NCBI GenBank assembly: GCA_964532205.1 | Contig: CAZHGQ010000004.1 | Location: 3,118 to 67,117 of the forward strand | From: an uncultured Candidatus Saccharibacteria bacterium | GTDB taxonomy: Bacteria; Patescibacteriota; Minisyncoccia; Phycocordibacterales; JAKAEA01 | Length of the DNA: 64,000 nucleotides | Direction of reading: 5' to 3' | Shown: piece by piece, positions 2,881-54,909 of the stretch | Numbering within the stretch: the stretch's first letter is position 1 | How the letters are laid out: each line of letters begins with the position of its first letter | The notes under the pieces: model-generated | What the model was told of the DNA's origin: nothing | Databases searched by the model: none | The model's input: only the letters and a program-made list of their open reading frames with translations | Position numbers and translations under genes: made by a program

Positions 2881-2881
2881 A

Positions 2882-5335: not shown

Positions 5336-5336
5336 A

Positions 5337-7976: not shown

Positions 7977-7978
7977 AT

Positions 7979-10550: not shown

Positions 10551-11780
10551 CTAGTTGAGGACAGGCATTGGACCTTGAGCACCTGGGCACACAATAGAGT
10601 TAATCTTCCAACGTGTTGTCTTGTAGACATAGCCAGTTGAAACATTTGCCTTACCGAGACCGACATCGGCCCATGGTTTCAAGACATCAACATTATTCTT
10701 GAGCTGGAAGGCATGAACTGCGGCCAATGTAGCTGCATCATACACACCATTAATCACAAGCTTAGTCTGTTCATGATCATTGAGGAATTTTTGTAAGAAA
10801 ACTACATCGTCAATGTTGTTTCTGCCGCCAAATTTAATGTAGCTATTGAGCATTGGACAGCTTGGACCAGTACTTGCACCGAGAACCGTGCCGCCAGTAC
10901 CACCAACATATCCTACATAGTTACCACCACCCGTTGCTGGAGGAGGTGTGTTATCAGATGCTGGAGCGTGGTAAGTATTTGTAATGGTACATGTAACCGG
11001 AGCCATACCTGCAGTGCCGCTACATGTGTCACTGAGTTCAAATGTGTAATGGGCTGATGCAGTAGTCGTTGCTTCAGTTACGGCAAAAGATTTGTTTCGA
11101 AGAACCATAAACGTACGGGTGCTTGAGGCTGCACCTGAGTAAACTTCTGAGCCATTTGATGTTACGTTGACAATAAAATCAGATGTAGAAGCAGTACCAC
11201 CAGACACAACAACCTGAACTGTAAGCTGGGTTTTTACTGGTGGACAACCTTTTGTGTCACCAAAGAATTTGCAGCATTCATTGTTATGATCATTACCAAA
11301 ATCCCATGGATCACAACAACGATCGTTACCATTACCGAAGTCACGTGAATCACAGCAGCGATCACCGCCATTACCAAAATCATGCGAATCGCAACATCGG
11401 TCATTGTTGCCAAAATCGTGACTGTCGCAACATCGGTCATCATTGCGACCAAAATTATCACGGTCACAACATTTATCATTACCACCACCGAAATCATTGT
11501 CATTGCAGCAGTTGTCATGATTACCAAATGAAGGACCGCAATTGTTACCACCGCCACCGCCACCGCCAAAAGATGCAACTGGCGAAGAGCCGCCCTCTGA
11601 GTCGACTGCCGGCCGTACATCATCTGCAATGGTTGTTTGAGTACCAATATCTGCAGAAATTTCTGTGCCGATTTGATCAACCACAGTTGCAGTCTGAGCC
11701 ATTGTTGCACCAGCGGGCAAAAAAGCTACCGCGAGTGTCATGTACACAGCTAAAGCCTGTACTGTTATGTGTTTTTTCAT
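10551..11780 (-). CDS. Secreted cysteine-rich tandem-repeat protein with C-terminal peptidoglycan-binding-like domain
   Basis: Signal peptide. About 6 tandem 11-aa repeats (DRCCDSHDFGNN). C-terminal FLQKFLNDHEQTKLVINGVYDAATLAAVHAFQ resembles PG_binding_1. Confidence 0.6.
   Translation of the reverse strand: MKKHITVQALAVYMTLAVAFLPAGATMAQTATVVDQIGTEISADIGTQTTIADDVRPAVDSEGGSSPVASFGGGGGGGNNCGPSFGNHDNCCNDNDFGGGNDKCCDRDNFGRNDDRCCDSHDFGNNDRCCDSHDFGNGGDRCCDSRDFGNGNDRCCDPWDFGNDHNNECCKFFGDTKGCPPVKTQLTVQVVVSGGTASTSDFIVNVTSNGSEVYSGAASSTRTFMVLRNKSFAVTEATTTASAHYTFELSDTCSGTAGMAPVTCTITNTYHAPASDNTPPPATGGGNYVGYVGGTGGTVLGASTGPSCPMLNSYIKFGGRNNIDDVVFLQKFLNDHEQTKLVINGVYDAATLAAVHAFQLKNNVDVLKPWADVGLGKANVSTGYVYKTTRWKINSIVCPGAQGPMPVLN
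11270..11520. repeat. Tandem approx 33-nt coding repeats (Cys-rich CCDxxDFGN modules)
   Basis: Repeated ...gtcacgatcaccgccattaccaaaatcatgcgaatcgcaacatcg... units visible in the sequence. Confidence 0.6.
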
Positions 11781-11914
11781 ATTAATTTATAAGTTAATAA
11801 AATACTTAACCGAGATGGGGTAAATATATAGCAAAGACGGCTGAAGTCAAGGATACATACAATAGCTAAAATCTGTATGAAAACTGCGGCCTTCGGCCGC
11901 AGTTTTTTGACATA

Positions 11915-15555: not shown

Positions 15556-15626
15556 CTTTTTGGCTCTTTTTGGCCTAATCTGGCCTAGCGTTAGGGCAAT
15601 TTAGGGCAAAATAGGGCAAAAAAGAA
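15556..15626. repeat. Cluster of short direct repeats (ggctcttttt x2, tggcct x2, tagggcaa x3) at the left edge of the low-GC island
   Basis: Seen directly. A 19-mer aatttagggcaaaataggg recurs at 26281-26299. Confidence 0.5.
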
Positions 15627-15635
15627 CACTTTTTA

Positions 15636-25678: not shown

Positions 25679-26555
25679 TATCCCTTTTGATCGACTCCGT
25701 CCAAAGGATAAACCAACTCGTTACTTTGTAGATAATGAGTATGTTGATGGTTGGTATGTAGCGAAGCTCCCCAGACTTTGTGGTGCCGTTTTGGATGTTC
25801 TCTTGCGGCATTGCAATACTGAAACTCAAGGAGCTTTTCCAAGTATCAAACGTATAAAGAAACTTACTGGTGAAAATAATCCAACGAGCATAAGCAAAGC
25901 AATTCAGATTCTTGAAGATCATGAAATTATTATTGTCCAAAGAAGCCAACAGGGTTTTGGCAGGTCCAACCTGTACGCATTTCAAAGTTCAATCTACTGG
26001 AAACCCTTGGATGAACACTCGAAGCGTATTAAGTTATCAACTTGGAAAGGAAGATATCAAAAAGGAAGGAACCATGATATCAAACCCAATGATAATTCAG
26101 GAAAAAGTAGTGAAATTGATACTCTAACTAACCTAAATAATAATTCTCCTAAAGATTTAACTAACCAAATACGGTCCTTGGCTGACCAGATGAGAATAAA
26201 CAAAAAGCCACAGAGAGTTGCTATTCCAGAGGGTTCTGGCAATACTTGGGTTCCACCTTGGCACAGGCCTGACAACAAGGGAAATTTAGGGCAAAATAGG
26301 GACAATAATGCACCTGTAAGTACAGGAGAAATGCAGGGTGAGGGTAGTATCAATATTGATATCATTGAATCCGTAATAACGGGAAATTTACGGGAAGTGA
26401 ATGATAACAATTCTGATATCATCCAGCCGTTAAAAAACGGTGAAAAAACGGATACGTTAGACGAAATAGAGCGGAATAAAGCGGAAGAGGATAAGAATTC
26501 AATCTACCTTCCAAACATCAGGGATGAGGACATAAGTGCAGGAACAGCAGGATAA
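25608..26555 (+). CDS. Winged-helix DNA-binding protein, possible element replication/regulatory protein; start likely internal
   Basis: FPSIKRIKKLTGENNPTSISKAIQILEDHEIIIV resembles a wHTH; low-complexity C-terminus. Confidence 0.4.
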   Translation: MTWNPDPNSWKDRKRMRATSLLRDIPFDRLRPKDKPTRYFVDNEYVDGWYVAKLPRLCGAVLDVLLRHCNTETQGAFPSIKRIKKLTGENNPTSISKAIQILEDHEIIIVQRSQQGFGRSNLYAFQSSIYWKPLDEHSKRIKLSTWKGRYQKGRNHDIKPNDNSGKSSEIDTLTNLNNNSPKDLTNQIRSLADQMRINKKPQRVAIPEGSGNTWVPPWHRPDNKGNLGQNRDNNAPVSTGEMQGEGSINIDIIESVITGNLREVNDNNSDIIQPLKNGEKTDTLDEIERNKAEEDKNSIYLPNIRDEDISAGTAG

Positions 26556-26561: not shown

Positions 26562-28154
26562 ATGAACCAAACTACTCCACGAATACTCTACATATACGCC
26601 AGAAAATCCTCTGAAAGTGAGGACCGGCAAGTTCAATCTATCGACGATCAGGTGAACCGCCTAAAGGAGCTGGCAAACAGTCTGGGAATCACTATCAAAG
26701 AGGTTCTGACAGAAGCTAAGTCTGCCAAGAAGCCGTATTGCCGACCAGTCTTCGATGACATGCTCAAACGCATTCAGCGAGGTGAGGCTGATGGCATTCT
26801 TTGTTGGCAACTTAATCGACTTTCTCGAAACCCCGTTGATAGCGGAGCTCTTAGCTGGATGTTGCAGCAAGGAGTTTTAAAATGTATTCAAACAATTGAT
26901 CGTCAATATTTACCTGATGATAACGTCCTTCTTTTTAGTGTTGAAAGTGGGATGGCAAATCAATTTATTATTGATCTTAAGAAAAACAGCATGCGAGGAA
27001 TGGTTGGAAAAGCTGATCGAGGTTGGCTACCCTCTCGTGCTCCGATGGGATATTTAAATGACAAACTCGAACATACAATCATCGAAGATAAGGACCGTTT
27101 TGATTTGGTCCGAAAGATGTGGGACGTGATGCTTACCGGCAATTACACTCCTTCTCAAATTTTAAAGACTGCAAATGATAAGTGGGGCTTTAGAACTCCC
27201 AAAACAAAACGAAGTGGTGGCGGTGAACTTGCCAACAGCATGATTTATAAGATATTCACCAACATCTTCTATACCGGCATGTTTGAATGGGCTGGAAAGC
27301 TGTATAAGGGCAACCATAAGCCCATGATTAGCCTTGAGGAGTTCGATCGGGTCCAAGCTATCCTGGGCCGAAACGGTAAGCCACGCGGCCAGACTCATGA
27401 GTTTGCATACACTGGCCTTATTTACTGTGAAGAATGTGGCTCGATGTATACCGCAAGTGAAAAAACCAAGTGGGTTGAAAGTGAAAAGAAGTTTAAAACA
27501 TATATTTACTATAACTGCACACGACGTAAGAAAGGAATCACCTGTACGCAAAGAAAACCGATTACGCTCGAAAAACTTGAGGAACAAGTAGACATTCAAC
27601 TTGAGCGATACAGCATTCTTCCTAAATTTAAAGATTGGGCTCTTGAGATTTTGAACAGAGAAAATAATAAAGAGATTGAGGACCGAACCAAGGTCTACGA
27701 GACACAGCATAAAGCAGTCGCCGAAACTCAAAAAGAAATCGACGCTCTTACCAAGATGCGTTATCGAGAATTGATTGATGATGAGACCTTTGTGAAAGAA
27801 CGTGACGATTTGAAAGCAAAACTTACCAAGTTAAAGGCCAATCTGCACAATACCGAAAACCGAGCCGAGAAGTGGCTAGAACTTACTGATAAGACATTTA
27901 ACTTTGCCTGCTATGCACGAGAAAACTTTAATTCTGGGACCTTGGAGAAGAAGCGAGAAATCTTTGCAGCACTTGGTTGGAACTTTTCAATAAAAGACAA
28001 AATAGTGAGCATTAAAGCCAATGATTGGTTTGTTCCAATAGAAAAAGCTTACCCAGAGCTTGAAGCTGAATATCGTCGGTTGGAACTACAAAAATACCTT
28101 TCAGCTGAGGCACGAAATGCTGCTTTTGCCTCACTCATTCTACGTTGGGGTTAG
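26562..28154 (+). CDS. Large serine recombinase rec1 (resolvase N-domain, recombinase domain, zinc ribbon, coiled coil)
   Basis: YARKSSESEDRQVQSIDDQ catalytic-Ser region. CEECGSMY...YYNCTRRKKGITC zinc ribbon. About 60% identical over the N-domain to 60008..61657. Stop codon lies inside the 268-bp inverted repeat. Confidence 0.85.
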   Translation: MNQTTPRILYIYARKSSESEDRQVQSIDDQVNRLKELANSLGITIKEVLTEAKSAKKPYCRPVFDDMLKRIQRGEADGILCWQLNRLSRNPVDSGALSWMLQQGVLKCIQTIDRQYLPDDNVLLFSVESGMANQFIIDLKKNSMRGMVGKADRGWLPSRAPMGYLNDKLEHTIIEDKDRFDLVRKMWDVMLTGNYTPSQILKTANDKWGFRTPKTKRSGGGELANSMIYKIFTNIFYTGMFEWAGKLYKGNHKPMISLEEFDRVQAILGRNGKPRGQTHEFAYTGLIYCEECGSMYTASEKTKWVESEKKFKTYIYYNCTRRKKGITCTQRKPITLEKLEEQVDIQLERYSILPKFKDWALEILNRENNKEIEDRTKVYETQHKAVAETQKEIDALTKMRYRELIDDETFVKERDDLKAKLTKLKANLHNTENRAEKWLELTDKTFNFACYARENFNSGTLEKKREIFAALGWNFSIKDKIVSIKANDWFVPIEKAYPELEAEYRRLELQKYLSAEARNAAFASLILRWG

Positions 28155-28414
28155 TCACTGCGCGCGACTCGATGCTTACTCTGCCCTCGGTAGGAATCGA
28201 ACAATTGGTAAAGGACAACGCCGCTCCACGGGTTCCTCACACCCCTCCAAGGGGGTGGAGGCCCACTACCTTCAAACCAGCGCTCTGTTGAGCGCTCATT
28301 CGTTCGTTGTGTTGAATTTGCCACCCCCGACTACCCGCCTCACGGCCCCTCACGGGGCTCACGCGGGTCACCCGGCTCACGCACCCGCACGCCGCTCAAC
28401 CACACGGGGTGGAG
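28147..28414 (+). repeat. 268-bp perfect inverted repeat, left copy (partner at 59561..59828)
   Basis: Compared base by base with the reverse complement of 59561..59828; identical over 268 bp. Confidence 0.85.
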
Positions 28415-28443
28415 TGAATACGCGAATCACAGCAGCGACATTA

Positions 28444-28461
28444 AGGACATTCAGATGTCCT
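28444..28461. promoter_or_regulatory. Perfect palindrome AGGACAT-N4-ATGTCCT about 130 bp upstream of the Pycsar-like effector gene; candidate operator
   Basis: Seen directly (aggacattcagatgtcct). Confidence 0.3.
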
Positions 28462-28588
28462 TTACCTGTACCACTACACGAGGTCAGCCACGCTACCTTC
28501 CAATGAAGAAAAGACACAGTCACCAAATCGCATTTGTCAATCTGAACTTCGCAGCAGTTTGAACGAATAAACACTATACTTACATCCC

Positions 28589-29497
28589 ATGATTGAGCGA
28601 TTCACGGGACCAAACGGCGGGGCAACGCTTAGTGACGCCATGTTGCAACAACGTATCGTCCAGCATGATGATGCGATTGCAAGGAAATTTATCGGATTAG
28701 GAACGCTGAATGAATACCAAGCTGGCAATGTGTTGATGGAACAGGCAGCCGCCGACGAAGCCGTTTTCTTCATTCTGGCTGGCGAAGTCAACGTTGAAGT
28801 AAATGGCCGGACCGTTGGTATCCGCACGGCTACTGAAACCGTGGGCGAAATTGCCGCCGTTGATCCCACTGCCCCACGGTCTGCAACCGTTCGCGCCGCA
28901 GGCGAAGTCGTGACGCTTCGCGTTGGGTCCGCTGACTTCATCAAAATTGCCGATGAACATCCCAAGGTGTGGAGAGCCACAGCACGAGTCATTGCTGATC
29001 GGCTCCGGCAACGGCATCGATTTCATCGTCCGCCTAATGCAAAGCCCATTCTGTTTGTGGGGTCTAGCGTCGAAGGGCTGGAAATCGCTAAGCACATCCA
29101 ACTTGGCATGAAGCATGACCCGGTAGAAGTTCGCATCTGGTCGAACGGGGTGTTCGGTCCTTCAAGCGTAACAGTCGACAAGTTACTTGCGCAAGTTGAC
29201 CAGTGCGATTTCGCCGCGTTTGTGTTCGGACCAGACGATCGCGTTGCGAGCAGGGACGAAAAATACGAAGCGCCTCGCGACAACGTTATTTTTGAAATGG
29301 GCATGTTTTTGGCCCGGCTTGGCTTGGACCGGACGTACATGGTGAAGGAACAGCGAACCGATTTGAAAATCCCCTCCGATCTTTTGGGGATTGCACCGTT
29401 GACATATGTTGCCGACGCCAAAACCAAAATCGACGTTACTCTCGGCCCCGTCTGCACGGAACTAGCTAAAAAATTGCGTGAATTGGGCTCAATCTGA
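28589..29497 (+). CDS. cNMP-binding domain fused to TIR-like/N-deoxyribosyltransferase-like effector domain (Pycsar effector-like)
   Basis: N-terminal cyclic-nucleotide-binding signature (FFILAGEVNVEVNG...VGEIAAV...RSATVRA). C-terminal ILFVGSS...FVFGPDD...NVIFEMGMFLARLG resembles the catalytic-Glu region of TIR/SLOG NADase-type domains. Confidence 0.65.
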   Translation: MIERFTGPNGGATLSDAMLQQRIVQHDDAIARKFIGLGTLNEYQAGNVLMEQAAADEAVFFILAGEVNVEVNGRTVGIRTATETVGEIAAVDPTAPRSATVRAAGEVVTLRVGSADFIKIADEHPKVWRATARVIADRLRQRHRFHRPPNAKPILFVGSSVEGLEIAKHIQLGMKHDPVEVRIWSNGVFGPSSVTVDKLLAQVDQCDFAAFVFGPDDRVASRDEKYEAPRDNVIFEMGMFLARLGLDRTYMVKEQRTDLKIPSDLLGIAPLTYVADAKTKIDVTLGPVCTELAKKLRELGSI

Positions 29498-34935: not shown

Positions 34936-37900
34936 ATGTCAGCGTATCTTTCCATCGATGAGCAACTTGCCCAGGAGTTTTACGATTGGGAACTCATTGG
35001 TCGGGGCTGGCAGGTGTGGGACGACCCGGTATCGCCAGAACCGCCGTTCCGACCATTCATTCGGAAGATGCCGCAATGCAGTCGTTCTGATGATGGCAGA
35101 GATCACAGTCTTCTGAGTGGTGTTATTGCTCGGCTTGCCAGACTCTTCGCCGGTCGACCCAACCTGCCTGTGGAACCCGAACCCACTTGGACACCGCTTC
35201 GGATCATCCATGATCCGCCACCCGTGGTGGAACTTGCGCTCGTCCCGCCTGCGGATTTTGATGCTTCGCAGCAGATGATGGCTCAACTGCTTGCTTCGCT
35301 TGCGATGGCGAATCATCCAATCGCATTTGAGATTCTCGCGAGCCAGAACACGATAGTATCGCAGTTCGCCGTTGCACAGAGTGATGCATCAGCAGTACGC
35401 AGTCAGATTCAGGCCCACTTTCCCGAAGTCGCGTTGAGTCAACAGACGAACGTTTTGAAGGATCGATGGGACGCTTCAGGTGAAGCCTCGCTCATCTTTG
35501 AGATCGGTCTCTCGCAGGAGTTCATGCGCCCGCTGCCCGTCCCGCCCAAACTCACGCCTGATGTGCTGGTCAGTGTCATGGGAGCAATGGAGGAAGTGTC
35601 CACCGACGAACTAGCGCTCATGCAGATGATCTTTGAGCCCGCCCGTTATCCGTGGGCAGCGAGCATGCTGCGAGCGGTGACCTTCAATGACGGCAGCGAA
35701 TTCTTCGATGCATCGGAAAGTGTACTCGATGAGACAAAGGAAAAACTCTCCCGTCCTTTGTATGCCGCCGTCATTCGACTGGCGGTTAAGACCGCCGATG
35801 AAGCTCGCACGTTCGAAATCGCCCGTTCCTTAACCGCTTCGCTCACCGCAGGTTTTCAAGGCTATGGCAATGACCTGATAGCTTTAAGCAATGATGAGTA
35901 TGATCCAGACGATCACGAGTTTGATACCCTTCATCGCCAGTGCCGACGCAGCGGCATGATCCTCAACAGCGATGAACTGGTGAACTTTGTTCACATACCT
36001 TCTTCCGCTGTACGCACCTCGAAGTTTACCCGGCAACTCAAACGCACCAAACGCGCTCCCGCCATTGCTGCTGGCAGAGATTGTGTTTTGGGTGAGAACT
36101 TCCACGCCGAACATACCATTCCTGTGGGTGTGGCTGCGGAAGAGCGCTCCAGACACATGCACCTCATCGGTGCATCCGGCACGGGAAAGTCGCAGTTGCT
36201 TTTGAACCTCATCGTGCAGGACATGGAACATGGCAAAGGCTTGGGGCTTCTCGATCCGCACGGCGATCTCGTGGACGACGTGCTTTCTCGCGTGCCCGAA
36301 GATCGAATTGATGATGTTGTGCTGCTGGATCCATCCGATGAGACGCACACCGTTGGCATCAACATCCTTTCTGCTAGAACCGAAGTCGAGAAAACCGTCC
36401 TCGCGTCGGATCTAGTAGCTGTGTTCCAACGACTCGCGACTAGTTGGGGCGATCAGATGACTTCAGTGCTTGGGAACGCTATCCTCGCGTTTCTGGAGCG
36501 TCCGCAGGGAGGTACGCTTGCCGATCTTCGACGCTTTCTCATCGAACCCGCGTATCGCAACGAAGTGCTTTCTTCCGTCACCGACCCGGAAGTCATCTAT
36601 TACTGGAAGAAGCAATTCCCCCTCATTCGCGGCATGCCGCTTGGCTCTGTGCTCACCCGACTCGACACGTTCCTGCGTCGCAAACCGATTCGGCAGATGG
36701 TCTGCCTCAAAGAAAAAGCTTTGGATTTCGCGGATATCATGGATCGCGGCAAGATTTTCCTCGCTCGCATCCCTCAGGGTTTGGTTGGCGAAGAGAATGC
36801 TCACCTTTTGGGCAGCTTGCTGGTGTCCAAGTTCTATCAACTGGCAATGGTGCGACAGCAGAGCGCCGCATCTCACCGCCGCGATTTCTATCTTTACATC
36901 GATGAGTTCCACCATTTTGTCACGCCGTCGATGTCATCCATTCTCTCTGAAGCGCGAAAGTATCGCTTGGCATTGATTTTGGCTCATCAGGAATTGCGGC
37001 AACTGGAAAGTCGCGGTGTGGATCTTTCGAGCGCCGTTCTTTCTCATCCGTATACCCGCATCTGCTTTCGTGTCGGAGATCAGGATGCCAAGCGTTTGGC
37101 GGAAGGGTTTTCGTTCTTCACCGCGGCGGATTTGCAGAGTTTGAGCACCGGTGAAGCCATCTGCCGCATGGAACGGTCGAATTACGATTTCAATCTTCGC
37201 ACAAAGCTTCTGCCAGAATTGGAATGGCAACGGGTTGAGGAAAAAAGAAGGAGTGTCATCGAGCGGTCGCGAGACCAGTTTGCTGTTTTGCGGAGTTCGC
37301 TAGTGGATGCCACGTCACTTACGACGGAGAGCTTCACCGCGGAGGAGATTGCGGAGCCAGAGGTCGAACCAATCATTGTGGAGCCGAAACCGGAGACTCC
37401 CGCACCGGCACCACGTCCAATCGCAAAGCCGCCGAAAGTGAAGCCGCTGGCGGATGAGCCCGCGAACCTGGGACGCGGCGGACCCGAACATCAGTATCTG
37501 CAACAACTCATAAAGCAGTGGGCGCAGGGTATGGGGTATCGAGCTTCTATTGAGGCGCCGTTGCCGGAGGGCGGAAGTGTCGATATCGCCTTGGAAAAAG
37601 GCAATCACCGCATCGCCTGCGAAACCAGTGTCACCAATACGCCCGCATACGAGGTCAGCAATATCCGCAAGAGTCTGGTCGCGAAGTATCAATACGTCGC
37701 GGTTGTGACGACCGACCTCAAGCACCGCGAGAAGATCGAAGCGGCGGCGGAGCAGTCATTAACTGACGCGGAGCTGAAGCAGGTGCGATTCTTCTCCCCC
37801 GACGAACTCTTCGCGTTTGTTCAAGAGTTGGAGGTAAACGACGCGAAGCAGGAGCGGCTGGTGTGCGGATACAAAGTGAAGACCTCGGTGCGCTCCACCG

Positions 37901-37986
37901 ACGCACAAGATCAAGCGATGCGGCAGCAGGCGATTGCCCAGGTCGTCGCTCGTTCGGTGACGCGGATGCGGAAAAAGAAACAGTAG
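34936..37986 (+). CDS. Large HerA/FtsK-superfamily ATPase (DUF87-like) with Pro-rich linker and C-terminal PD-(D/E)xK-like or DNA-binding domain
   Basis: Walker A GASGTGKSQ, Walker B IDEFHHF, ARKYRLALILAHQ (HerA-type arginine-finger region). Paralogous ATPase core to 53398..54690. C-terminal GGSVDIALEKGNHRIACE. Confidence 0.6.
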   Translation: MSAYLSIDEQLAQEFYDWELIGRGWQVWDDPVSPEPPFRPFIRKMPQCSRSDDGRDHSLLSGVIARLARLFAGRPNLPVEPEPTWTPLRIIHDPPPVVELALVPPADFDASQQMMAQLLASLAMANHPIAFEILASQNTIVSQFAVAQSDASAVRSQIQAHFPEVALSQQTNVLKDRWDASGEASLIFEIGLSQEFMRPLPVPPKLTPDVLVSVMGAMEEVSTDELALMQMIFEPARYPWAASMLRAVTFNDGSEFFDASESVLDETKEKLSRPLYAAVIRLAVKTADEARTFEIARSLTASLTAGFQGYGNDLIALSNDEYDPDDHEFDTLHRQCRRSGMILNSDELVNFVHIPSSAVRTSKFTRQLKRTKRAPAIAAGRDCVLGENFHAEHTIPVGVAAEERSRHMHLIGASGTGKSQLLLNLIVQDMEHGKGLGLLDPHGDLVDDVLSRVPEDRIDDVVLLDPSDETHTVGINILSARTEVEKTVLASDLVAVFQRLATSWGDQMTSVLGNAILAFLERPQGGTLADLRRFLIEPAYRNEVLSSVTDPEVIYYWKKQFPLIRGMPLGSVLTRLDTFLRRKPIRQMVCLKEKALDFADIMDRGKIFLARIPQGLVGEENAHLLGSLLVSKFYQLAMVRQQSAASHRRDFYLYIDEFHHFVTPSMSSILSEARKYRLALILAHQELRQLESRGVDLSSAVLSHPYTRICFRVGDQDAKRLAEGFSFFTAADLQSLSTGEAICRMERSNYDFNLRTKLLPELEWQRVEEKRRSVIERSRDQFAVLRSSLVDATSLTTESFTAEEIAEPEVEPIIVEPKPETPAPAPRPIAKPPKVKPLADEPANLGRGGPEHQYLQQLIKQWAQGMGYRASIEAPLPEGGSVDIALEKGNHRIACETSVTNTPAYEVSNIRKSLVAKYQYVAVVTTDLKHREKIEAAAEQSLTDAELKQVRFFSPDELFAFVQELEVNDAKQERLVCGYKVKTSVRSTDAQDQAMRQQAIAQVVARSVTRMRKKKQ

Positions 37987-38032
37987 CGTCCAGCATAGTT
38001 GACTATTTTCTCATCGCCTTTGGTGGTCAATT

Positions 38033-38257
38033 ATGATAGACTATCCGGCGATGACTCACGAGCAATTGCTGAAAGTGGTTTGCCGCCGGATGAAGCGTCT
38101 GGACATGACACCGTACCGTTTGCATCAGGAACTCAACGGTAAGGTTTCAAAGCAGACGGTCTACAACTTCATCGAGCATGGCAGGCACGTCACCACGGAG
38201 ACACTCGTGGCGATTCTTTCGGTGCTCAAGCTTTCGATCAGCGAACCGGACGAATAG
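38033..38257 (+). CDS. XRE-family HTH DNA-binding protein
   Basis: SKQTVYNFIEHGRHVTTETLVAILSVL. Confidence 0.6.
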   Translation: MIDYPAMTHEQLLKVVCRRMKRLDMTPYRLHQELNGKVSKQTVYNFIEHGRHVTTETLVAILSVLKLSISEPDE

Positions 38258-38266
38258 GAGGCGATC

Positions 38267-39850
38267 ATGATTGCACGCACGTCGTACGAGATTCACAAAC
38301 CGGTGGGCATCTGGATTCGCGTCTCGACTGAAGACCAGGCCCAGGGTGATAGTCCTGAGCATCATGAGAAGCGTGCCCGCTATTACGCCGAATCCAAAGA
38401 GTGGGACGTCAAAGAGGTGTATCACCTGGAAGGTGTGAGTGGAAAGACGCTCATGGGGCATCCCGAGACACGCCGAATGCTCGAAGACATCCGCACCGGG
38501 AAGATTCGCGGGTTGATCTTCTCCAAGCTCGCCCGTCTCGCCCGCAATACCAAGGAACTCTTGGAGTTCGCCGATATCTTCCGCGAACACAACGCGGATT
38601 TGATTTCTCTTCAAGAATCGATTGATACCTCCACACCCGCAGGCCGTCTCTTCTACACCATGATTGCAGCGATGGCGCAGTGGGAACGGGAGGAGATCGC
38701 GGATCGCGTGAAGGCATCGATTGCCATCCGAGCTAAGCTGGGCAAGCCGTTAAGCGGCAGACCGGCATTTGGATATACACTTAAGGATAAGAAGGTCGTT
38801 CCCCATCCCACCGAAGCCCCGGTTCGCAAGCTCATCTATGAATTATTTGCCGAGCATCGCCGGTACAAGACGGTGGCGAGGCTGCTCAACGAGTCCGGGT
38901 ATCGCACCCGAAGCGGTGGACTCTTCTCCCATTCCACCGTTGAACGACTCATTGACGATCCAACCGCTAAAGGCGTGTATCGCACAGCGTTCACTGAGAA
39001 GATCAAAGGCAGAAGCTGGGTAAGCCAGAAGCCGGAGAGCGAATGGACGACGATTGCGGTTGAGCCCATCGTTTCTGAGGAGTTGTGGGAACAGTGCCAC
39101 AAGTTGCAGGCAGAGCGGTACCAACCTCGCAAGCGTCCAGGCAAACGTCCGGTGCATCTGTTTGCAGGATTGGCGTACTGTGAATGCGGCAAGAAGATGT
39201 ATGTCCCGTCCAACACGCCCAAGTACGTCTGTCAGGCCTGCCGCATCAAGATTCCCATCGTGGACTTAGAGAATGTCTTTATTGAACAACTCAAAGGTTT
39301 CTTCCTATCCCCCGATCAACTTGCAACGCATGTCGAATTGGCAGATGACAACATCCGAGAAAAGCACAAGCTTCTTGAGGTGCTTCAATCGGAAGCGGAC
39401 AAGCTTCAAGCCGAGATTGACAAGACCTACCAACTCTATCTGGAAGGACAGTTATCCACCGAAGGCTTCGGCAAGTTCTACAAACCCCTGGAAGACCGGC
39501 AGAAGCAACTTGGGGAGGAGCTACCCAAGCTCCAAGCTGAGCTTGACCTGCTGCGGATTAATGGCATTTCCGCTGATCTCGTCATGACTGAAGCCAAGGA
39601 CCTCTATGCCCGCTGGAAGGATTTAGACAAAGACGAGAAGCGCCGAGTCATTGAATCTCTTACCGATCGGATCACGATCGGAAAGGAGGCGATAGACATA
39701 AGTCTTTGCTTTCGCCCCTCCTATGAAGAAATGACAAATAGGCAACGCGAGCTTGTCATGGCGTTACCTATTTGCCACCTCAAGCTAACTCATCGAATCG
39801 TCGAGAGTTGTGTAAAACCGAAGATCCCGAGCATGATACAATCGAGGTAA
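38267..39850 (+). CDS. Large serine recombinase rec3 (distinct subfamily from rec1/rec2)
   Basis: IWIRVSTEDQ catalytic Ser. Recombinase domain. CECGKKMYVPSNTPKYVCQAC zinc ribbon. Coiled coil. Confidence 0.85.
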   Translation: MIARTSYEIHKPVGIWIRVSTEDQAQGDSPEHHEKRARYYAESKEWDVKEVYHLEGVSGKTLMGHPETRRMLEDIRTGKIRGLIFSKLARLARNTKELLEFADIFREHNADLISLQESIDTSTPAGRLFYTMIAAMAQWEREEIADRVKASIAIRAKLGKPLSGRPAFGYTLKDKKVVPHPTEAPVRKLIYELFAEHRRYKTVARLLNESGYRTRSGGLFSHSTVERLIDDPTAKGVYRTAFTEKIKGRSWVSQKPESEWTTIAVEPIVSEELWEQCHKLQAERYQPRKRPGKRPVHLFAGLAYCECGKKMYVPSNTPKYVCQACRIKIPIVDLENVFIEQLKGFFLSPDQLATHVELADDNIREKHKLLEVLQSEADKLQAEIDKTYQLYLEGQLSTEGFGKFYKPLEDRQKQLGEELPKLQAELDLLRINGISADLVMTEAKDLYARWKDLDKDEKRRVIESLTDRITIGKEAIDISLCFRPSYEEMTNRQRELVMALPICHLKLTHRIVESCVKPKIPSMIQSR

Positions 39851-40738
39851 ATGACGTCTACAAGAGGTGGGGTGAATATTGAACTTCAAGTACGCGATAT
39901 CGCGCTACTTCGTGACCTTTTTGAATCTCGATTCATGGCACTCCGGCACATCGCGGGCCTACATTTTGACTCTCGGCACGAGCCAGCCCGAAAACGAGTA
40001 TCTCTACTTTGCAGTGCAGGATACATCCGGGTGAGGGCACGCCACTTTAACGAACCTGCGCTGTACTTCTTGACCGCGCGCGGCATGCGACTTCTTTCGC
40101 AATACGGCCACTTAGGATCGTATCCTCATCTGTCTCGCGCGGTCTTGCAGAAGCGACTTGAGATAAGTTCACTAACTCTCCGGCATGAGCTCGATGTGCT
40201 GGATGTCAAAACGGCATTTGTGAACGCGACAAGATCAAACGCCAAACTCCGCATCGCAACCTTCTCAACGTGGCCGAAACTGCATTCCTTTCAAATGCTT
40301 TCAAGCGACGGGTCTGAAGTCATCGTAAAGCCTGATGGGTATATCGTCGTCCAAGAACCGCGTGCCGATTGCCCGCTTGTCATCCATCGATTCTTCCTTG
40401 AAGTCGACCGAAGCACCGAATCGCTTCGGGTCATTGACACGCGATGCAACGCATACGTCGACTATTACCGCAGCGGGGGCTTCGCTGTCGCAAACGGATT
40501 GTCATTCGACGATTATAAGCGTTTCCCATTCCGCGTTCTGATCATCACCAAGAGCGAAGAACGCCTGCAAAACATCGCCGACCGGATAAGCAAGACCGCT
40601 GGATCTCAGATTTGGCTTACGACACAGCGCGATTTCATAATCGGTTCGCTTGGGCAGATTTGGCGCTTGGTGAAACACGGCCACACTAACCAGCCGAACG
40701 ATCACAAGTCGCTCTTCATCACCCGCACCAATTTTTAA
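39851..40738 (+). CDS. Replication-relaxation (Replic_Relax) family protein
   Basis: N-terminal wHTH (DIALLRDLFESRFMALRHIAGL) and FFLEVDRSTE core motif. Confidence 0.6.
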   Translation: MTSTRGGVNIELQVRDIALLRDLFESRFMALRHIAGLHFDSRHEPARKRVSLLCSAGYIRVRARHFNEPALYFLTARGMRLLSQYGHLGSYPHLSRAVLQKRLEISSLTLRHELDVLDVKTAFVNATRSNAKLRIATFSTWPKLHSFQMLSSDGSEVIVKPDGYIVVQEPRADCPLVIHRFFLEVDRSTESLRVIDTRCNAYVDYYRSGGFAVANGLSFDDYKRFPFRVLIITKSEERLQNIADRISKTAGSQIWLTTQRDFIIGSLGQIWRLVKHGHTNQPNDHKSLFITRTNF

Positions 40739-40762: not shown

Positions 40763-41092
40763 TCATCTACTGGAGTGCAGTTCCTTCAGACCTGCTCGCG
40801 CATCATCGGCCTCCTTATCCAATCCTTCTGTCTCTGCCAGGGGGATTACCCTCTGAAACATTTCGATCGCTTCGACTAAGCGTCCGAGATCTTTCATCAA
40901 GCATGCGAGGCAATAGAGAATCTGCACCCGATCGTAGGTATCTTCTTCTTGTTCAGCCTTAAGCAAAGCTTCGCGAAGTTGATTTTCTCCATCAGTGGTA
41001 CGGCCACGATCGAGTAGCAGTAGTGCTTTATTGAACATGTCACGTGCATTCATTTTATCTCCCATACATTCTAATGAAGTTGCGAGAAGCAC
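40763..41092 (-). CDS. TPR-like small protein; candidate immunity protein for the upstream Rhs toxin
   Basis: Helical TPR-like repeats. Immediately downstream of the toxin gene, overlapping it by 38 nt. Confidence 0.4.
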   Translation of the reverse strand: MLLATSLECMGDKMNARDMFNKALLLLDRGRTTDGENQLREALLKAEQEEDTYDRVQILYCLACLMKDLGRLVEAIEMFQRVIPLAETEGLDKEADDARAGLKELHSSR

Positions 41093-44000
41093 GTGGTACT
41101 AAATACATCTCAGAGAGGAGTTTGACTTGCCTCTCGATGTCCGCAACTCCAAAATTCGGATTTGCGTTGGCGAAAAGTTCCCACTGCTTGTTCCACTCAG
41201 GGTGCAGTGTCTTGTGGAGTGCGTAAGGTATTTCTGTAATCCGTTGATCTACGAACTTGCGCGGGTCATAGCCGAGAGCTCGGAGCCGATTGCTGAAAGT
41301 GGAATTCTTGAGCAGTTGCTGCGGCACAAGATGATGTTGCCTCATTGCCGCTGGTCCGTAGCGTGCACGGTAGCCTGATGTATTTCGTACCATGCCGCTC
41401 GGCGTCGATCCGGACAATGAATAAACTGCAGTTGAGCCAACTCCGACCACACCGCCCCAGTTGACCGCAGCCCCACTAAAGACGCTTGCAGCAGTTGAAC
41501 CACCGCCCATCACTGAAGCAACAGTTTGACCACCGATAATGGACAGCGCTGGTGGAGGTGTCCGGCTAAAGAGCATCAACGCGCCCTGGGCGCCTTCATC
41601 GGCGTATCGCAACGCCGTGGTCGAGAACCGGCTAATCGCGCCGGGGAACGAACCGGCCAGAGCGCCGATGTTCGTGCCGACCTCCACGCTCTTCCAGTAG
41701 TCCGCTCCTGTCGATGCGGAATAGATCGCGCCACCAGCGCCGCCGACCGCTGTTCCTGCAGCGAGATACCAAAGCGCAGAAGTGCCACCTGACGCTACGG
41801 TCAACGCGACTGTGCCGGCCCATCCGGAAATCTTCGCTAGATGATATGGATCGGCATTCCACTCCGCAGATGGCCGGAACGCGTCATATTTACCCGAGAA
41901 ATCCGTCCACGCATCGAGTGTGCTTGGATTGCTCCATTGTCCTTGTGTTCCGGCGAAACCATCCTTCTCCTGCACGCCCGTCCATTCGACGTTTTTGCCA
42001 TCAAAGAATCCACCGGCGGTATAGCTTTGGTAGGCGTAGCCATCTTCTGTCTGCGGCGTGCCGCGGTAGCTGTCGTGCTCGGTTTGGTTGGGCATCCAAA
42101 GCATGCCGTCACCATCATCACGACCGCCACGCCAAAGGTAACGGAAGCGGTAACCGTCGCTAGACGTGGACCTGCCGTATTGATCGACTTTATAATCAAA
42201 GGTGCTGGTTCCTGTGGATTGACCGACTGCAACCTGTCCTTCTGTTGTGTATGTGTACATCTCACGGTTGATCGCCAAACTTGTAAAATCTTCGCGGATG
42301 CGCCAGACGCTGCCATCGGGTCCGCTGTACACCCAGACACGACTACCATCATCATTGTCTCGAAGCACCATCCGTCCGGGTTCACCGGCGCTCCAGACAT
42401 ACTGATTCTGGGGCTGAGTGCGATACGTGCCGTCAATCTGCTCTTGTTTCTCTTCAATCACATTGCCAGCGGCGTCATAGAACAGGTGCAGCGTGCCCTG
42501 ATATCCCGTGACCTCTTGCGTGCTGTTGGTCTCGGAGATGCGTCGTCCAAGCGCATCGTAGTCGAATGTCAGCGTGTGCGCATTGGGAATATCGTAAGCG
42601 TATTGGTATTGAGAATTCCCCGGATCGGCGAAGATCTCGTCGAGCTTGACTGTCGTCTTGCTTGCGAGCCGACCCAACCCGTCATACTGAACAAAGACAT
42701 CAATGCGCTGATCGATATTATCGACAGGTGTTGATTGAATCGGGCTATTGCCGGTTGGCACTGGGCGCTGGAACACTAAACGTGCAGGTGGATCAAAGGT
42801 GTTTGTCCCGCTTCGGTCGCGTGTCAGGACACTGGCATCGATGATGTTATCCCAATTCTGCGATGAGATTGGCAGCGGATCACCATCGGAATCGGTCGTG
42901 ACGGAAGGCGCGTTGAGGCTGGTCAATCTTCCGCGTTTGTCGCTGCCTGTATTCAGCCAGTAAGTGAAATTCCCTGGATAGTCTCCATCACCGCGGACGA
43001 ACGACTGAACTCTGCCCAACTGGTCATATACCTGATTCGCCGGCGCGCTGCCCGAGCCATACAACTCGCTTCTCCACCGTCCGTTGAAGTTGTCTTGGCT
43101 ATCAAGCCAAGAGTAAAGAACATTCCCATCAGCGTCGTAGCCATAAGCACGTTGTTCGAGGCCGACGTCATGAATGACTACGCGCCCAAACCGATCGAGC
43201 CCGCCATATTGATCGTTGACGCGACCTGCATCGTCGGCGACCTGGTTCCAATCCATTGTCACTGCTGATGCAGGATCGAGATCATAAATGTATGTCGTAC
43301 CTTGAAATGATACGGCCACGCCGCCAGCACTAAGCACACGCGGCATATTACGTTCGACAATGCGATTCAAGCCAAGATACTCGTAACGTTCCAGCCGGTC
43401 GTTGTTTACGGCGGTGGATGGATCACCATCGACCATGAATCCAACTCTGCTGATCCGATCGTTGAGCACTCGGCTGAAGTTCACGAGCGTACTGCTGGTC
43501 GTGTAGTCTTGATATCCATACACCACGCCCACTTCGCGGCCATCGGGATAGACTGTCTTTGCAAGACGGGTGAGATTGTTTCCAAAATCGGTGGTGTAGA
43601 CGTATTGAACCTTTTGCGATGGAGTCCCTCCTGTACGAGCGACCGATGTCTTGTGTTCCTGCCATTCTGTTACGAGATTGCCAAGCCCGTCGAAGTCCCG
43701 GATCACTTGATTCTTGACCGTTGTTCCAGAATCGAGCGTTGTAAATTCAATTCCCCGGCTGAGTGCATCGAATCGTGTGCGAATCTTCTGACCACGATCC
43801 AACATGTTGGCCGGTTTCGATGCGGCATCGATCCACTCCGTCAGCGTCAGTCTGCCAAGTGTGTCGTAGTTGAATCGCTGCTCGCGAATCTGTTTCTGCG
43901 TAGCCGACGTGCTGAGGTTGTAGATTTCCTCTTTCTGTTGCCTGTTTTCGCCCAATGCGGTATAGCCGGTCATCACCTCGCGATGCCCTGATCCAGAGTA

Positions 44001-47000
44001 AGCACCAGCAGGACGACCGTATACAACACTGCTCAAGAGCCCGCTGTGATTGACAAGAATCGTGCTGTTTTTCGTGACGCCATAGTTGTACGTCGTGATG
44101 TAGGAATAGGCGGTGTTTGATTTGTAGGTGGTGGTTTCAATCTGGGTTTGCTGATCAAAGCCGTTGTAGGTGTAAAGCGTTTTTCGCGTGTCGTCTGCGG
44201 TTGGAGCAGATGAGCGATATCCTTCTTGAACAATGGTGGCACGATCCAGCGCGTCATAGGTTGTGCGAGTGACTACACCTCGCGGACTCACCACATCCTG
44301 CAACCGGCCCGCAGTGTCAAAAACATAATCTGTCTGCAACCAACGATCCCAACCATCAGCTGCAGTATCGCGTCCAGGAGCGGTGCTTGGTCGCGAAAAG
44401 TCCCGCACGCCGTTTGCATTGGCATCGCCATCATCGCCATTGTTGCCCCAGTTGACCTGATTGGTCAGTCGGTCCGCAGAATCGTAATAGTTGCCGACAA
44501 GACTGATGCGGGCATTCAAAGAAGTTAAGTCACCCAAATCCGTCTTGTCATGATCCCGCTGCCCGGTTGCAATCAGAGTTGGATTTCCGTTGCCGTCATA
44601 ACTTGTTTCAACTTGTTCCAAAACAACATCATCGCTTACGCTGCCAGCGGCGGTATAGTTGCCGGAAGCACCAGGTGCCGGATCATCTTTTCCATCAGTC
44701 GTGTATCGCTTGGTTTCCCGGCTAGCCCCGTCGTACACCATCTTCTGATTTAAGCCGCCGGGGTTGCGCTGTTTGATCAGGTTGCCGCGATTGTCGTACC
44801 ACATGCTGGTGGTAAGGTAATTGCCTTTTGTGCCCGCAGTACCGGACCATTCCTGCTCGACGCTATACTGCCGTACTTCGTACACGTTTCCGCGATCATC
44901 AAACAGGGTGTCTTGATATGCGCGACGTTGCGCGGAGAGCGTGCTATCCACCGTTCCCAGATTCAAACTGTTGATGTTCTGCCCGTCGCCGTCGTAAATA
45001 CCCTTGCCAACACATCTATCCAAGTTGTCAAAAACACAGAGTGTAATAGGTGAGTTTACCGTCGTGTCGCTGGTGACTCCTTCATGCGTCAACACCAGAC
45101 GATCGCGCCAATCATAGCGCATGGCGGTCACGCGATCCGCGTTAGAGCCTCCTGGAATTTGCGTGACCTTCGTGAGCGTATCGTCACCCACGTTTCCACC
45201 GTCAACGCTGCCACCATCATATTCATTGGCAGTGACCTTCGTCATATTCGTGCCGGGAGAACCTGGAGACCAACTACTGTCATCCGTACCCACCCACGTT
45301 GAGATTGCACGATCCAGTCCGTCATACACGGTGCGCGTGATGGTTGGGTTAAAGCCGGAGAGACTTCCGCCCGTGTACAAATCTCGACCGGCAGCTTGGC
45401 GCGTCTGCCGTCCCCGCTCATCGTAACCAAACTCGGTGCGATATCGGGTTGTCGTGCCTGTTAGAGCGCCAGTGCTGGCGGTATAGGCGTTGCCCGAGGT
45501 GTCCGCGAAACGCTCGACCGCTGTGGCTTGCTGCTGGATATTATGCTCAGTGCGCGTGCGTTTTGTGACTGTTGAAAGCAAGTCACCCGAGCTATCGCGC
45601 ACCACGTCGATTTCATCAAGCACACCTGTCGCGCGATTATCTATAATGACATGGGCTGGTGGAGTATTCCCTGAGCTCGGCAACGGCGGCGTGATTGTCA
45701 CTCGCTTCAGAGCGGCACTGTCGTCATATTCACTCCTAGTAATCCCCGTGCTCAAGCCCATGTAGGTGTTTGCATCCGTAATCTTTCTGTTTCGACCAAG
45801 TAGATCCGCTTCGAAGCCCGTTGTTAATGGAGCTCCGCCACTATCAACAACACTCTGCTTAAGGGCACCCGTGGCGTCAAAATACTGGTTGGTTGCGACC
45901 TTGCCATCGCCGTCCGTAAACGACGTTTCTCTGCCGAAAGAGTCGTACGCCATAATCTCGGTCTTTGATGTGGTTTGTGTGCCGCCGTTCTGAGCCTGAA
46001 GAATGTCGGGAAGCGTTGTAGTTCTTTGTGTGATCCGGTCACTACTATATGAATACGAATAGCTTGTCGTAACGGCACTCGCGCTGGCGTCGCTTCGATA
46101 GACCGTATCAGAAGCGACAACAAATGCGCTCGACGTTGGTGTGCCACCTGTTGCACTTGGACGAGCGCTGTACGTGAGTTCGACTTGCAGATTTTGCGAT
46201 CCTCCTGTCCCCTGTTTTCGACCTGTACGCCACAAGTACCCCGTAGCACTTGCTGGGTCATACTCAAATGTATGGACCAACCCGGTGGCACTCTGCAAGG
46301 TTGCCGGGTGATTGTTGCTGTCGCTGATTGACGCGACAGCTGTCGGCGTCGCTGTAAGGGTCAAGCGTCCTTTTGCATCGAATTGATTGGCGGTGTTCCA
46401 AGTCGCCGCCGTTGTCGCTGTGGGCGAGCTATAACTTGTGAGCAGGACTTCGCCACGGCTGTTTGTGTAAACGACATTCTTGTCGTTATTGCTCAGATCT
46501 GCATTGTCGGAATCCGGTAGGGATTCAATTGTCTTTGAATCCCACGTGTTTACACCACTGCGCCCACCGGTGGTACTCGACGATGGACCAGCATAGTCAT
46601 AGCTGAACGTTCCACTGCCTTGAATCGTCTGCGTTTTCACTCGATTACGCCGAAGTACGGTGGAATCATCGGCGGCGTAGTAATCGAGCACAAGATTCGC
46701 GTACGGTTGGAGTGTCGCTTGGTTCACTGACGCTGGATCCATTCCTTCGCGGCCAAGCGCACGCTCATAAGAAGCGCCCTCAAGCACGAGAATCAGTCGG
46801 CCATAGTTGTCATAGCGATAGAGCTTGCGTTCGACTGCATTGCCACTTTGCTTGACGGTAACGCGCTTCAAGTTTCCAGGATTGCCATATGTGGTGTCGC
46901 TTCCACCGTAATATTCGTATTCGACGTTGCGCACCGCTTCGACTGCACCCGCATTGAGGTCGTTGCGTCGCTCCATCAGCATGCCAGTGAGTTGATTGAT

Positions 47001-54690: not shown

Positions 54691-54909
54691 ATGCCCGAAT
54701 CAGCCGCCGTTCCTTCGGAAAGACCCTTGGAGTAATCCGGCGCCATTGGGAAACCCACACGCAACGACATCCGTTGTGGTTGACGAGCCGCTAAGGTAGC
54801 GGAGGCTGAAACGGAAACACCAACAGCCTGCCCGCTTGTGTAGTCGTCTGTTGAGCTCCTTCTCAAAAGTATATCTCAACGAACGAAACATTAACTGTGG
54901 AGAAGCTCT

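Follow-up and report, generated by a model that had tools for sequence, protein, structure and literature searches.

A cluster of TCAC-loop mini-hairpins in the attP flank of a tRNA-His-integrated serine-recombinase element from an uncultured Saccharibacteria bacterium

Short CTCACG repeats are clustered in a stretch of 64,000 nucleotides (nt), here called the window, from contig CAZHGQ010000004.1 of an uncultured Candidatus Saccharibacteria bacterium. The cluster is part of an element of about 33 kb (positions 28147–61529), which encodes a large serine recombinase (LSR), termed LSR3, and is integrated at the 3′ end of a tRNA-His gene. In a naive reading the repeats would be filed as iterons in a terminal inverted repeat; comparison with relatives revises both parts of that description. 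Each CTCACG unit is a small GC-rich stem-loop with an invariant C·G closing pair and a covarying stem, and the 268-nt repeat that carries the units, termed Z, is the P′ flank of the LSR3 attP. A functional-looking, conserved cis element of a mobile element is retained from the interpretation in the earlier note on this DNA, but the array does not consist of phased duplex iterons and does not lie in a terminal inverted repeat. The array is tentatively read as a hairpin-type cis signal that would act in single-stranded form for the mobilization backbone.

LSR3 is a large serine recombinase integrating at the tRNA-His 3′ end. Its reading frame (60008–61657, plus strand) crosses attR into the tRNA-His(GTG) gene (61525–61598, minus strand), which is the integration target with the crossover at its 3′ end, and therefore displays a non-native tail. 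The backbone of the element consists of LSR3, a 430-amino-acid (aa) soluble TrwB/HerA-like ATPase termed T4CP-430 (53398–54690, minus strand), a MOB_C-type relaxase of family PF13814, Replic_Relax (39851–40738, plus strand, E = 8e-22), and a DnaG-type primase with a zinc ribbon and a Toprim domain (58026–59138, plus strand), which ends about 420 nt from the inner end of the right Z copy. The GC content of the element is 52% vs 42% in the flank.

Two inverted repeats abut each other. The outer one is 268 nt long and 100% identical between its arms (28147–28414 and 59561–59828), and the inner one is 97 nt long and 99% identical (59824–59920 and 61433–61529), its right arm ending 5 nt inside tRNA-His. 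The core GGGGT recurs at three junctions, J1 at 28147, J2 at 59828 (minus strand) and J3 at 61525. The order at J1 is the end of the neighboring integrase gene LSR1, core, Z; at J2, read on the minus strand, it is X, core, Z; and at J3 it is X, core, tRNA-His. The left copy, Z1 (28147–28414, plus strand, core at 28147–28151), is the P′ flank of attP and here forms attL. The inverted, identical copy Z2 (59561–59828, minus strand) together with X2 forms an intact inverted attP, which reads GCGCGCAtttcccagaaGGGGttagtcacTGCGCGC. X2 (59824–59920, minus strand), the left arm of the inner repeat, is an inverted 99%-identical copy of the last 97 nt of LSR3 plus the core, and X1 with its core (61433–61529, plus strand, GGGGT at 61525–61529) is the right arm and forms attR. 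Thus Z is present twice because the integrated element carries an extra intact inverted attP (X-o-Z, with o for the core). J2 shows an imperfect palindrome, GCGCGCA-N11-GGGG-N8-TGCGCGC, which lies within about 25 bp on each side and conforms to a minimal serine-integrase attP; the array is situated 190–260 bp from the crossover and so falls outside this minimal attP. A transposon terminal inverted repeat was rejected as an explanation, as the right copy is internal, with 1.7 kb (the LSR3 module) beyond it, and the junctions are attL, inverted attP and attR.

The left boundary is defined by comparison with other loci. LSR1 (26562–28154, plus strand) is the integrase of a neighboring low-GC element, is 31% identical to LSR3, and forms the B arm of attL with its 3′ end. 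Its stop codon (28152–28154) comes from Z1, and the LSR3 and LSR1 elements are arranged in tandem at tRNA-His. Loci L001 and L002, where LSR1 is 90% identical, match the window up to ..cattctacgttGGGGT and past that point enter a different 10-kb element with its own serine integrase, abutting tRNA-His. This point of divergence shows that J1 is a true att junction and that 28147–61529 is an element in tandem with an older one. As a separate observation, the LSR1 frame also crosses its att core (530 aa in the window vs 540 aa in L001, 10001–11623), and up to three serine-integrase elements are found in tandem at tRNA-His. The 268-nt repeat showed no DNA homology to phages or plasmids, and an exact 20-mer of the P′ arm is absent from GTDB genomes and JGI metagenomes.

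The sequence at 28330–28414 (plus strand) is ..gccacccccgactacccgcCTCACGgcccCTCACGgggCTCACGcggGTCACCcggCTCACGcacccgcacgccgctcaaccacacggggtggag. At least five phased CTCACG copies had been noticed here, and this count holds as four exact copies (starts at 28339, 28349, 28358 and 28376, plus strand) and one close variant (GTCACC, 28367), followed by the more degenerate cGCACG (28386), CTCAAC (28395) and ACACG (28402). With the variants included, the array spans 28339–28410 with successive spacings of 10, 9, 9, 9, 10 and 9 bp; Tandem Repeats Finder (TRF) gives a period of 9 with 3.8 copies at 28349–28382. Its location inside an inverted repeat and its mirroring on the other strand are likewise confirmed, with CTCACG copies at 59594–59636 (minus strand) and both arrays within the 268-nt identical arms. 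Across the 64-kb window CTCACG occurs at chance level (29 observed, 29.9 expected), thus only the clustering is special. No other chain of at least four identical 6-mers spaced 8–12 bp apart is found in the 64 kb; about eight such chains are found in 1.03 Mb of related loci, and a rough random-sequence estimate is about 0.003 per 64 kb.

Five TCAC-loop units make up the first copy of the array (28337–28382, plus strand), and degenerate units continue to 28410. These are unit 1, gccTCACggc (28337–28346); unit 2, gccccTCACggggc (28345–28358); unit 3, gcTCACgc (28357–28364); unit 4, ggTCACcc (28366–28373) or alternatively cgggTCAcccg (28364–28374); and unit 5, gcTCACgc (28375–28382), all on the plus strand. 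The second copy (59593–59638, minus strand) is identical, its loops reading GTGA on the plus strand. A 7-bp inverted repeat, CCACCCC at 28321–28327 and GGGGTGG at 28406–28412, brackets the array (28321–28412, plus strand), and the identity between the Z copies stops at 28414, 2 nt past GGGGTGG.

Z, followed outward from the core, begins with the P′ half-site and continues with coding sequence for the LSR3 tail, a hairpin termed IR-A (28230–28264), a terminator-like hairpin termed IR-B (28279–28296) with a T-rich tract behind it, and finally the array. The native LSR3 tail has its stop codon in Z at 28289–28291, and the array starts 50 nt later. A terminator scan detected only IR-B (match at 28289–28306), and the segment 28225–28320, which includes IR-A and IR-B, gives z = −3.2 when folded as single-stranded DNA. 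No promoter-like sites were found near either Z copy. Two other readings of Z were rejected. A tRNA-like relic (GGAATCGAAC) is better explained as conserved integrase tail coding sequence, and a coding reading is not tenable, as the open reading frame at 28060–28506 displays no Pfam match and cannot be conserved across two different flanks.

The hairpin nature of the units becomes apparent when the array is compared with clusters of the same kind in three other elements (L111, L112 and L276, described below). What had been taken as the iteron core is the closing base pair plus a TCAC tetraloop, and what had been taken as spacers are the stems; the complementary strand of the loop reads GTGA, which is of the GNRA type. 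Linear duplex iterons are thus replaced by hairpins with an invariant C-TCAC-G center. In the four modules, the flanks of 14 of 17 TCAC sites can pair over at least 2 bp and those of 10 of 17 over at least 3 bp; in the background of the same elements, pairing over at least 3 bp is seen at 18 of 601 sites. Pair counts and the covariation score were taken over 13 units from the four elements. All 13 units close the loop with C·G; the second pair is G·C in nine and C·G in four, with none unpaired; and the third is GC in five, CG in four and UA in one, with three unpaired. The stem covariation score is 0.412, vs 0.179 ± 0.048 for shuffled sequences (0/500 reach the observed value) and 0.11–0.19 for slid controls. 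The stems differ in sequence from unit to unit, with the flank pairs gcc/ggc, gcccc/ggggc, ccc/ggg, cgc/gcg, ggc/gcc, gaggc/gcctc, gtccgcc/ggcggac, ctcggc/gccgag and tgc/gca. Stems of 2–7 bp cannot extrude from a duplex, and sequence conservation is confined to the loop and closing pair; the units would therefore have to be read in single-stranded form. The 9–10 bp period of the window probably represents the tightest packing of such hairpins, which are so close that neighbors overlap.

The relatives come mainly from a family set of 82 loci (L111–L192) with recombinases 43–51% identical to LSR3, drawn from many phyla. TCAC motif clusters are found in L111, L112 and L276 in the equivalent att flank and in the same orientation as in the window, 130–310 nt from the att core and 130–240 nt past the LSR stop codon; in all carriers the clusters point the same way relative to the att core. 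The three loci lie on contigs Ga0645786_0334 (L111), ERZ25070695 ctg131804 (L112) and Ga0376661_0000967 (L276). GCTCACG is present three times in L112, four times in L111, and twice in L276 with further degenerate copies. The units are spaced 17 and 32 bp apart in L112, 27, 21 and 17 bp in L111, and 22 bp in L276, vs 9–10 bp in the window. The CTCACG phasing expected of homologous elements under the iteron interpretation is therefore not conserved. In 1.1 Mb of family loci, clusters of at least three CTCACG are found only in the window (twice), L111 and L112, and in 2.0 Mb, at least two TCAC hairpins within 80 nt are found only in the window (twice), L111, L112 and L276. The Z sequence around the motif is barely alignable between carriers. 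Their LSRs are about 48% identical to that of the window and their ATPases 59–68% identical (68% in L276).

The gene content of the carriers differs. L111 encodes an RHS protein, the ATPase, a helix-turn-helix (HTH) protein and the LSR; L112 a Hachiman system, Replic_Relax, the ATPase and the LSR; and L276 a ParB-like protein, the ATPase and the LSR. Only the LSR and T4CP-430 are common to the window, L111 and L112, with Replic_Relax shared in addition with L112 alone, and apart from the LSR, T4CP-430 is the only protein common to all four carriers. Among LSR-family loci, the TCAC cluster is present in 2/2 with a cargo-side T4CP-430 and in 0/39 without it (Fisher p = 0.0012, a small sample); the window and L276 are further cases of the same co-occurrence outside this count. 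LSR3 is equally similar to the LSRs of carriers and non-carriers, thus the cluster does not track the integrase clade. Replic_Relax was not detectable in the 16 kb of the motif-bearing L276, and loci with Replic_Relax 47–53% identical (L194–L198) show no TCAC clusters. A suggested link of the repeats to the ATPases and Replic_Relax of the element is thus matched by co-occurrence for one HerA/TrwB-like ATPase but not for Replic_Relax, which does not co-vary with the motif. Contigs that encode ATPases at least 60% identical to T4CP-430 number in the thousands. No CTCACG clusters were found in 77 metagenome loci with ATPase homologs 31–65% identical, most of which lack the integrase region and hence are uninformative.

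Because the cluster tracks the ATPase backbone and not the integrase clade, a cis signal on a single DNA strand is the favored function, namely a single-strand signal of the mobilization backbone, to which a probability of roughly 0.4 is given. The relaxase and the primase on the element were also counted for this reading. Such a signal, placed beside att, would act on single-stranded DNA of the mobilizable element, either the strand in transfer or one exposed by unwinding, and could serve recognition or priming during or after transfer. If so, the hairpin units provide a concrete cis element for a poorly known class of mobilizable islands with defense and toxin cargo.

Several observations weigh against a single-strand DNA signal. 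The whole window array folds no better than shuffled sequences (z = −0.6 and −1.0), because the tightly packed, overlapping hairpins compete. The stems contain Watson-Crick pairs only, with no G·T (G·U) pairs, so that neither the strand nor the choice between RNA and DNA can be identified from them. There are only four independent carrier elements, and the link to the ATPase could be a phylogenetic coincidence. As an origin of transfer (oriT), the array has a stronger competitor in a non-coding block (54760–54830, minus strand, ..TTACCnnnGCGGCTCGTCAACCACAACGGATGTCG..) that is better conserved, begins some 100 nt upstream of the T4CP-430 gene and is 2.4–4.8 kb from the array; the lack of co-variation with Replic_Relax also speaks against an oriT. 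The position of the cluster, always 3′ of the true integrase stop codon, fits a role in a 3′-untranslated region (UTR) equally well. To our knowledge there is no oriT or single-strand initiation site (ssi) that consists of several mini-hairpins with identical loops. The block upstream of T4CP-430 is found in L111 (about 8290–8350), L112 (about 7530–7600) and L276 (about 4950–5010) as well and is a candidate oriT, promoter or leader.

Possibly the cluster is instead an RNA element of the integrase transcript, which would stabilize, terminate or insulate transcripts that cross att, or bind a regulator. In the full-length X-o-Z configuration the array would lie in the 3′ UTR just past the terminator-like hairpin, and in the integrated configuration the inverted copy, capped by GUGA of the GNRA type, lies about 370–450 nt upstream of the LSR3 start codon. 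The cluster is always in sense orientation 50–240 nt 3′ of the true LSR stop, Z modules throughout the family carry hairpins after the stop, and IR-B with its T-rich tract resembles a terminator. In C(GUGA)G, a C-G pair closes a GNRA tetraloop, an arrangement whose stability in RNA is well established. However, selection for stability alone would give mixed GNRA variants, while 13/13 loops are GTGA, and 39 family members that lack the ATPase also lack the cluster, though integrase control would still be needed in them. The missing G·U pairs and the missing promoter-like sites near both copies also speak against RNA. Rfam covariance models gave no match at gathering thresholds in the window and only chance-level matches (E ≥ 2.2) on 27900–28700. 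Folding of the whole Z as RNA gives z of only −1.5 and −1.8. The array hairpins themselves have no T tract on either strand and do not resemble intrinsic terminators.

It is unlikely that the units are duplex protein-binding repeats, such as a MOB_C relaxase site, an ATPase loading site like the cis-acting locus of transfer (clt), or operators of a regulator. The (G)CTCACG core does occur in 3–5 copies of the same orientation in four elements, Replic_Relax is encoded in the window and L112, and the succession of IR-A and IR-B with direct repeats 50–160 bp further on resembles the pAD1 oriT (PMC12857230). A duplex reader would not require self-complementary, covarying flanks, however, and the spacing shifts from 9–10 bp to 17–32 bp in the relatives. 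The relaxase is undetectable in one carrier and present without the motif in L194–L198. A clt of the FtsK/TraB type had also been proposed, but an AlphaFold2 model of T4CP-430 (pLDDT 91.7) matches TrwBdeltaN70 and HerA over its full length, and its modelled C-terminus consists of two helices only, so that a DNA-reading winged helix of the FtsK-gamma type is predicted to be missing.

A functionless by-product, i.e. a GC-rich palindromic mini-repeat (of repetitive extragenic palindromic (REP)-like or slippage origin) that hitch-hikes in the attP flank and is gene-converted, appears quite improbable. TRF sees a simple 9-bp tandem repeat, the unit number differs between elements, and the window copies are 100% identical and so uninformative on constraint. 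But all 13 units, drawn from four elements with proteins only 48–68% identical and flanks that do not align, keep one loop sequence and one closing pair, the stems change by compensatory substitutions, and neither position nor orientation varies.

Accessory arm-type sites for the serine integrase or a directionality factor, which had been considered for the array, are the least probable explanation: the array does lie in the attP flank, is duplicated along with attP, and the P′ half-site holds GTCAC, but serine integrases use sites of about 50 bp or less without accessory sites (PMC1470463), the array is 190–260 bp away, the half-sites differ between the window (tRNA-His) and L111/L112 (tRNA-Ser) while the motif is the same, the P′ half-sites of L111 and L112 lack GTCAC, and most family members have no motif. 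A search of viral contigs for a threefold CTCACG pattern led nowhere; it gave 108 unrelated matches, mostly coding 9-bp repeats, without flanking homology.

The two inverted repeats of the window are a hallmark of the integrase family. A convergent tRNA gene is found within about 150 nt of the LSR end in about 60 of the 82 loci. In 69/82 loci a near-perfect inverted repeat pairs the LSR 3′ end and att core with an upstream site; its arms have a median length of 114 nt and a median identity of 99.2% and are 1.36–3.86 kb apart, with the right arm ending 4–8 nt inside the tRNA 3′ end. The presence of this arrangement in so many independent loci rules out an assembly artifact for the inverted attP. 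The outer repeat (Z...rcZ) is found in at least 20 loci, with a length of 100–330 nt and mostly 97–100% identity. Integrated elements of the family can be written as B-o-[Z cargo rcZ]-o'-[rcX LSR X]-o-tRNA, with one extra intact inverted attP upstream of the integrase. In L111 and L112, 2.5–3.1 kb separate the inverted attP copy from the att core that adjoins the integrase 3′ end. Many family contigs break at the repeat arms.

The reading frame of the recombinase depends on what follows the core. When read through X-o-Z, it ends in the conserved C-terminus ..L-(N/D)-(K/E)-(I/V)-R-T-F-F-x-E-N-P-D-x-E-F* in 51 of the 59 loci that can be evaluated. When read through the actual X-o-tRNA, the conserved C-terminus is present in 0/63, and tRNA-derived sequence, e.g. 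..RDSNPR.., is found instead. In the window, the LSR3 tail reads ..SQKG-LVTARDSMLTLPSVGIEQLVKDNAAP..ALC* through Z and ..SQKG-CPMGIEPISPGP..ERI* through the tRNA. This comparison shows that attP lies inside the integrase frame, that integration replaces the native tail and that the spare inverted attP preserves the 3′ end. A flipped state, in which the tRNA adjoins the upstream arm, is found in three loci (L138, L167 and L181), and in L276 the LSR is joined to Z. We infer that the integrase module inverts.

No description of an attP that spans the integrase, together with an inverted spare attP, was found in the literature searched, and this arrangement is a more surprising result than the array. 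In integrated copies the integrase is annotated with the wrong C-terminus, which matters for island annotation in uncultured phyla and for the mining of serine integrases for genome engineering. If the cassette really flips, this would be a new coupling of the integration state to the structure of the integrase, and it would explain the assembly breaks at the integrase. A wider proposal is offered tentatively. A tRNA-targeting integrase family of Patescibacteria, Planctomycetota, Gammaproteobacteria and other phyla might control itself by DNA topology, through a tail swap at an attP within the gene (..L-N-K-I-R-T-F-F-x-E-N-P..) and an invertible cassette that restores the full-length gene, with the TCAC cluster of the ATPase sub-family as a new single-strand signal for transfer, priming, or end alignment against the inverted copy.

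Other structures are found in and near the att flanks of the family. The Z-equivalents of L115, L116, L127, L129, L130, L158, L173, L175 and L184 show a long hairpin with two C-tracts at its apex (CCCCCC-N3-5-CCCCCC or the G-rich complement). A C-tract hairpin is present in the attP flank of most family members, often within an AT-rich stem of 15–19 bp that resembles a bidirectional terminator. On the host side of attR, beyond tRNA-Ser, L111 displays two inverted 8-bp arrays (11608–11723, GGTTYAAG six times and then its complement) and L112 five TCACC units with an 8-bp period (11854–11896). An apparent enrichment of tandem repeats just past the tRNA in relatives was set aside as weak and mostly AT-rich low-complexity sequence, and no convincing short-repeat arrays were found near the Replic_Relax genes of L194–L198. 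In the Saccharibacteria loci L143 (6008–6099) and L174 (3741–3977), tandem arrays of 7–9 bp lie directly 3′ of a distant ATPase homolog (36–38% identical), a placement reminiscent of clt.

The remaining genes of the window include a second module (34936–39850, plus strand) with a 1016-aa ATPase like a type IV coupling protein, a 74-aa HTH protein and LSR2. The 1016-aa ATPase is a paralog, 35% identical to T4CP-430, and LSR2 is a distant member of the three large serine recombinases in the window. The segment with the HTH protein and LSR2 (38023–39747) shows 82% DNA identity to L193 (3122–4846), but there the genes that precede it are unrelated and encode an M78 peptidase and a nucleoside deoxyribosyltransferase. 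LSR2 could be part of a nested element of its own. Among the cargo proteins are a TIR protein that binds cNMP, an RHS protein of 2569 aa, an ATPase of the AAA_15/21 type, a 2-oxoglutarate (2OG) oxygenase and a MarR protein, and exact look-ups of the window proteins show the cargo proteins to be singletons. Defense and toxin cargo is located at 28589–29497, 41055–48764 and 54910–57378; the TIR domain is of the CAP12/Pycsar type, a small TPR protein follows RHS, and the AAA_15/AAA_21 ATPase has 822 aa.

Outside the LSR3 element, AGGGCAA repeats phased at 10 bp (AGGGCAATTTAGGGCAAAATAGGGCAAAAAA) are found in the neighboring low-GC element at 15593–15633 and 26278–26308, with one copy about 250 bp upstream of LSR1. 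A similar sequence, TTTGAGGGCAA, occurs twice in L189 (about 11650–11675) downstream of the integrase 3′ end, where no tRNA follows. In the left flank, positions 1–8000 hold three minus-strand gene paralogs, each about 2.65 kb long and with segments 60–84% identical, and 11291–11481 is a tandem repeat with five copies of a 36–39-nt unit.

The gene content places the LSR3 element among known mobilizable elements. PF13814 corresponds to the MobC/MOB_C relaxase family (PMC5357655), with a PD-(D/E)XK fold (PMC5357655, PMC3424549). The combination of a MOB_C relaxase, T4CP-like ATPases and a primase has its literature (PMC5357655, PMC12857230), and streptococcal integrative and mobilizable elements (IMEs) unite a serine integrase with a coupling protein and a MobC relaxase (PMC5357655). 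The LSR3 element is an integrative mobilizable island of the kind reviewed for the streptococcal IMEs.

In pAD1, the MOB_C relaxase TraX binds five direct repeats, 70–120 bp from the nic site that lies in an inverted repeat (PMC12857230). Like the pAD1/pAM373 oriT, the window region is non-coding, is near the recombination and transfer functions of an element that encodes a PF13814/MOB_C relaxase, and shows IR-A and IR-B followed 50–160 bp on by a run of repeats of about 6 bp. Unlike in that oriT, each repeat is a hairpin in its own right, with a covarying stem, the motif shows no co-variation with the relaxase, and the site is 11–19 kb from the relaxase gene.

The clt of Streptomyces consists of 8-bp repeats read by the FtsK-like translocase TraB. 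Like clt and the FtsK orienting polar sequences (KOPS), the units are GC-rich copies of 7–8 bp in one orientation with variable spacing, and they occur with an ATPase of the HerA/FtsK superfamily. But that ATPase is modelled as the TrwB soluble domain or HerA, without a gamma-type winged helix, the units are palindromic around an asymmetric loop, and the 3′ end of the ATPase gene is not where the cluster lies. REP elements and bacterial interspersed mosaic elements (BIMEs) are likewise clustered short GC-rich imperfect palindromes 3′ of a gene. They differ in that the TCAC cluster is confined to one mobile-element module with all units in one orientation, that its conserved part is the loop and not a 5′ tetranucleotide of the GTAG type, and that no REP-associated tyrosine transposase (RAYT) is present.

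The ssi of RSF1010, the single-strand origins (sso) of rolling-circle plasmids and Frpo-type hairpins share with the array a GC-rich single-strand hairpin with conserved loop bases and free stems, and here too the mobilizable element encodes a primase. The known ssi and sso are one or two larger hairpins, in contrast to 3–5 mini-hairpins with identical loops, and no sequence similarity is known.

For the integrase module, the phage P1 C segment with cin and the Mu G segment with gin offer a parallel, as a recombinase-associated segment lies between inverted repeats with crossover cores at the outer ends, both orientations are found among LSR loci, and reading frames cross the junction. The LSR family departs from these in its recombinase, a large serine integrase that in addition inserts the element at a tRNA, and in its sites, which are of attP and attR type and not identical invertase sites; inversion is inferred. 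In SSV1-type archaeal integrases and in the integration-dependent immunity of mycobacteriophages, attP lies inside a gene and integration changes the protein. LSR3 differs from these as a serine and not a tyrosine recombinase, and in keeping an inverted intact attP, with the integrase flanked by near-perfect inverted repeats; like them, it has attP inside the 3′ end of a reading frame, that of the integrase, where integration replaces the conserved C-terminal peptide.

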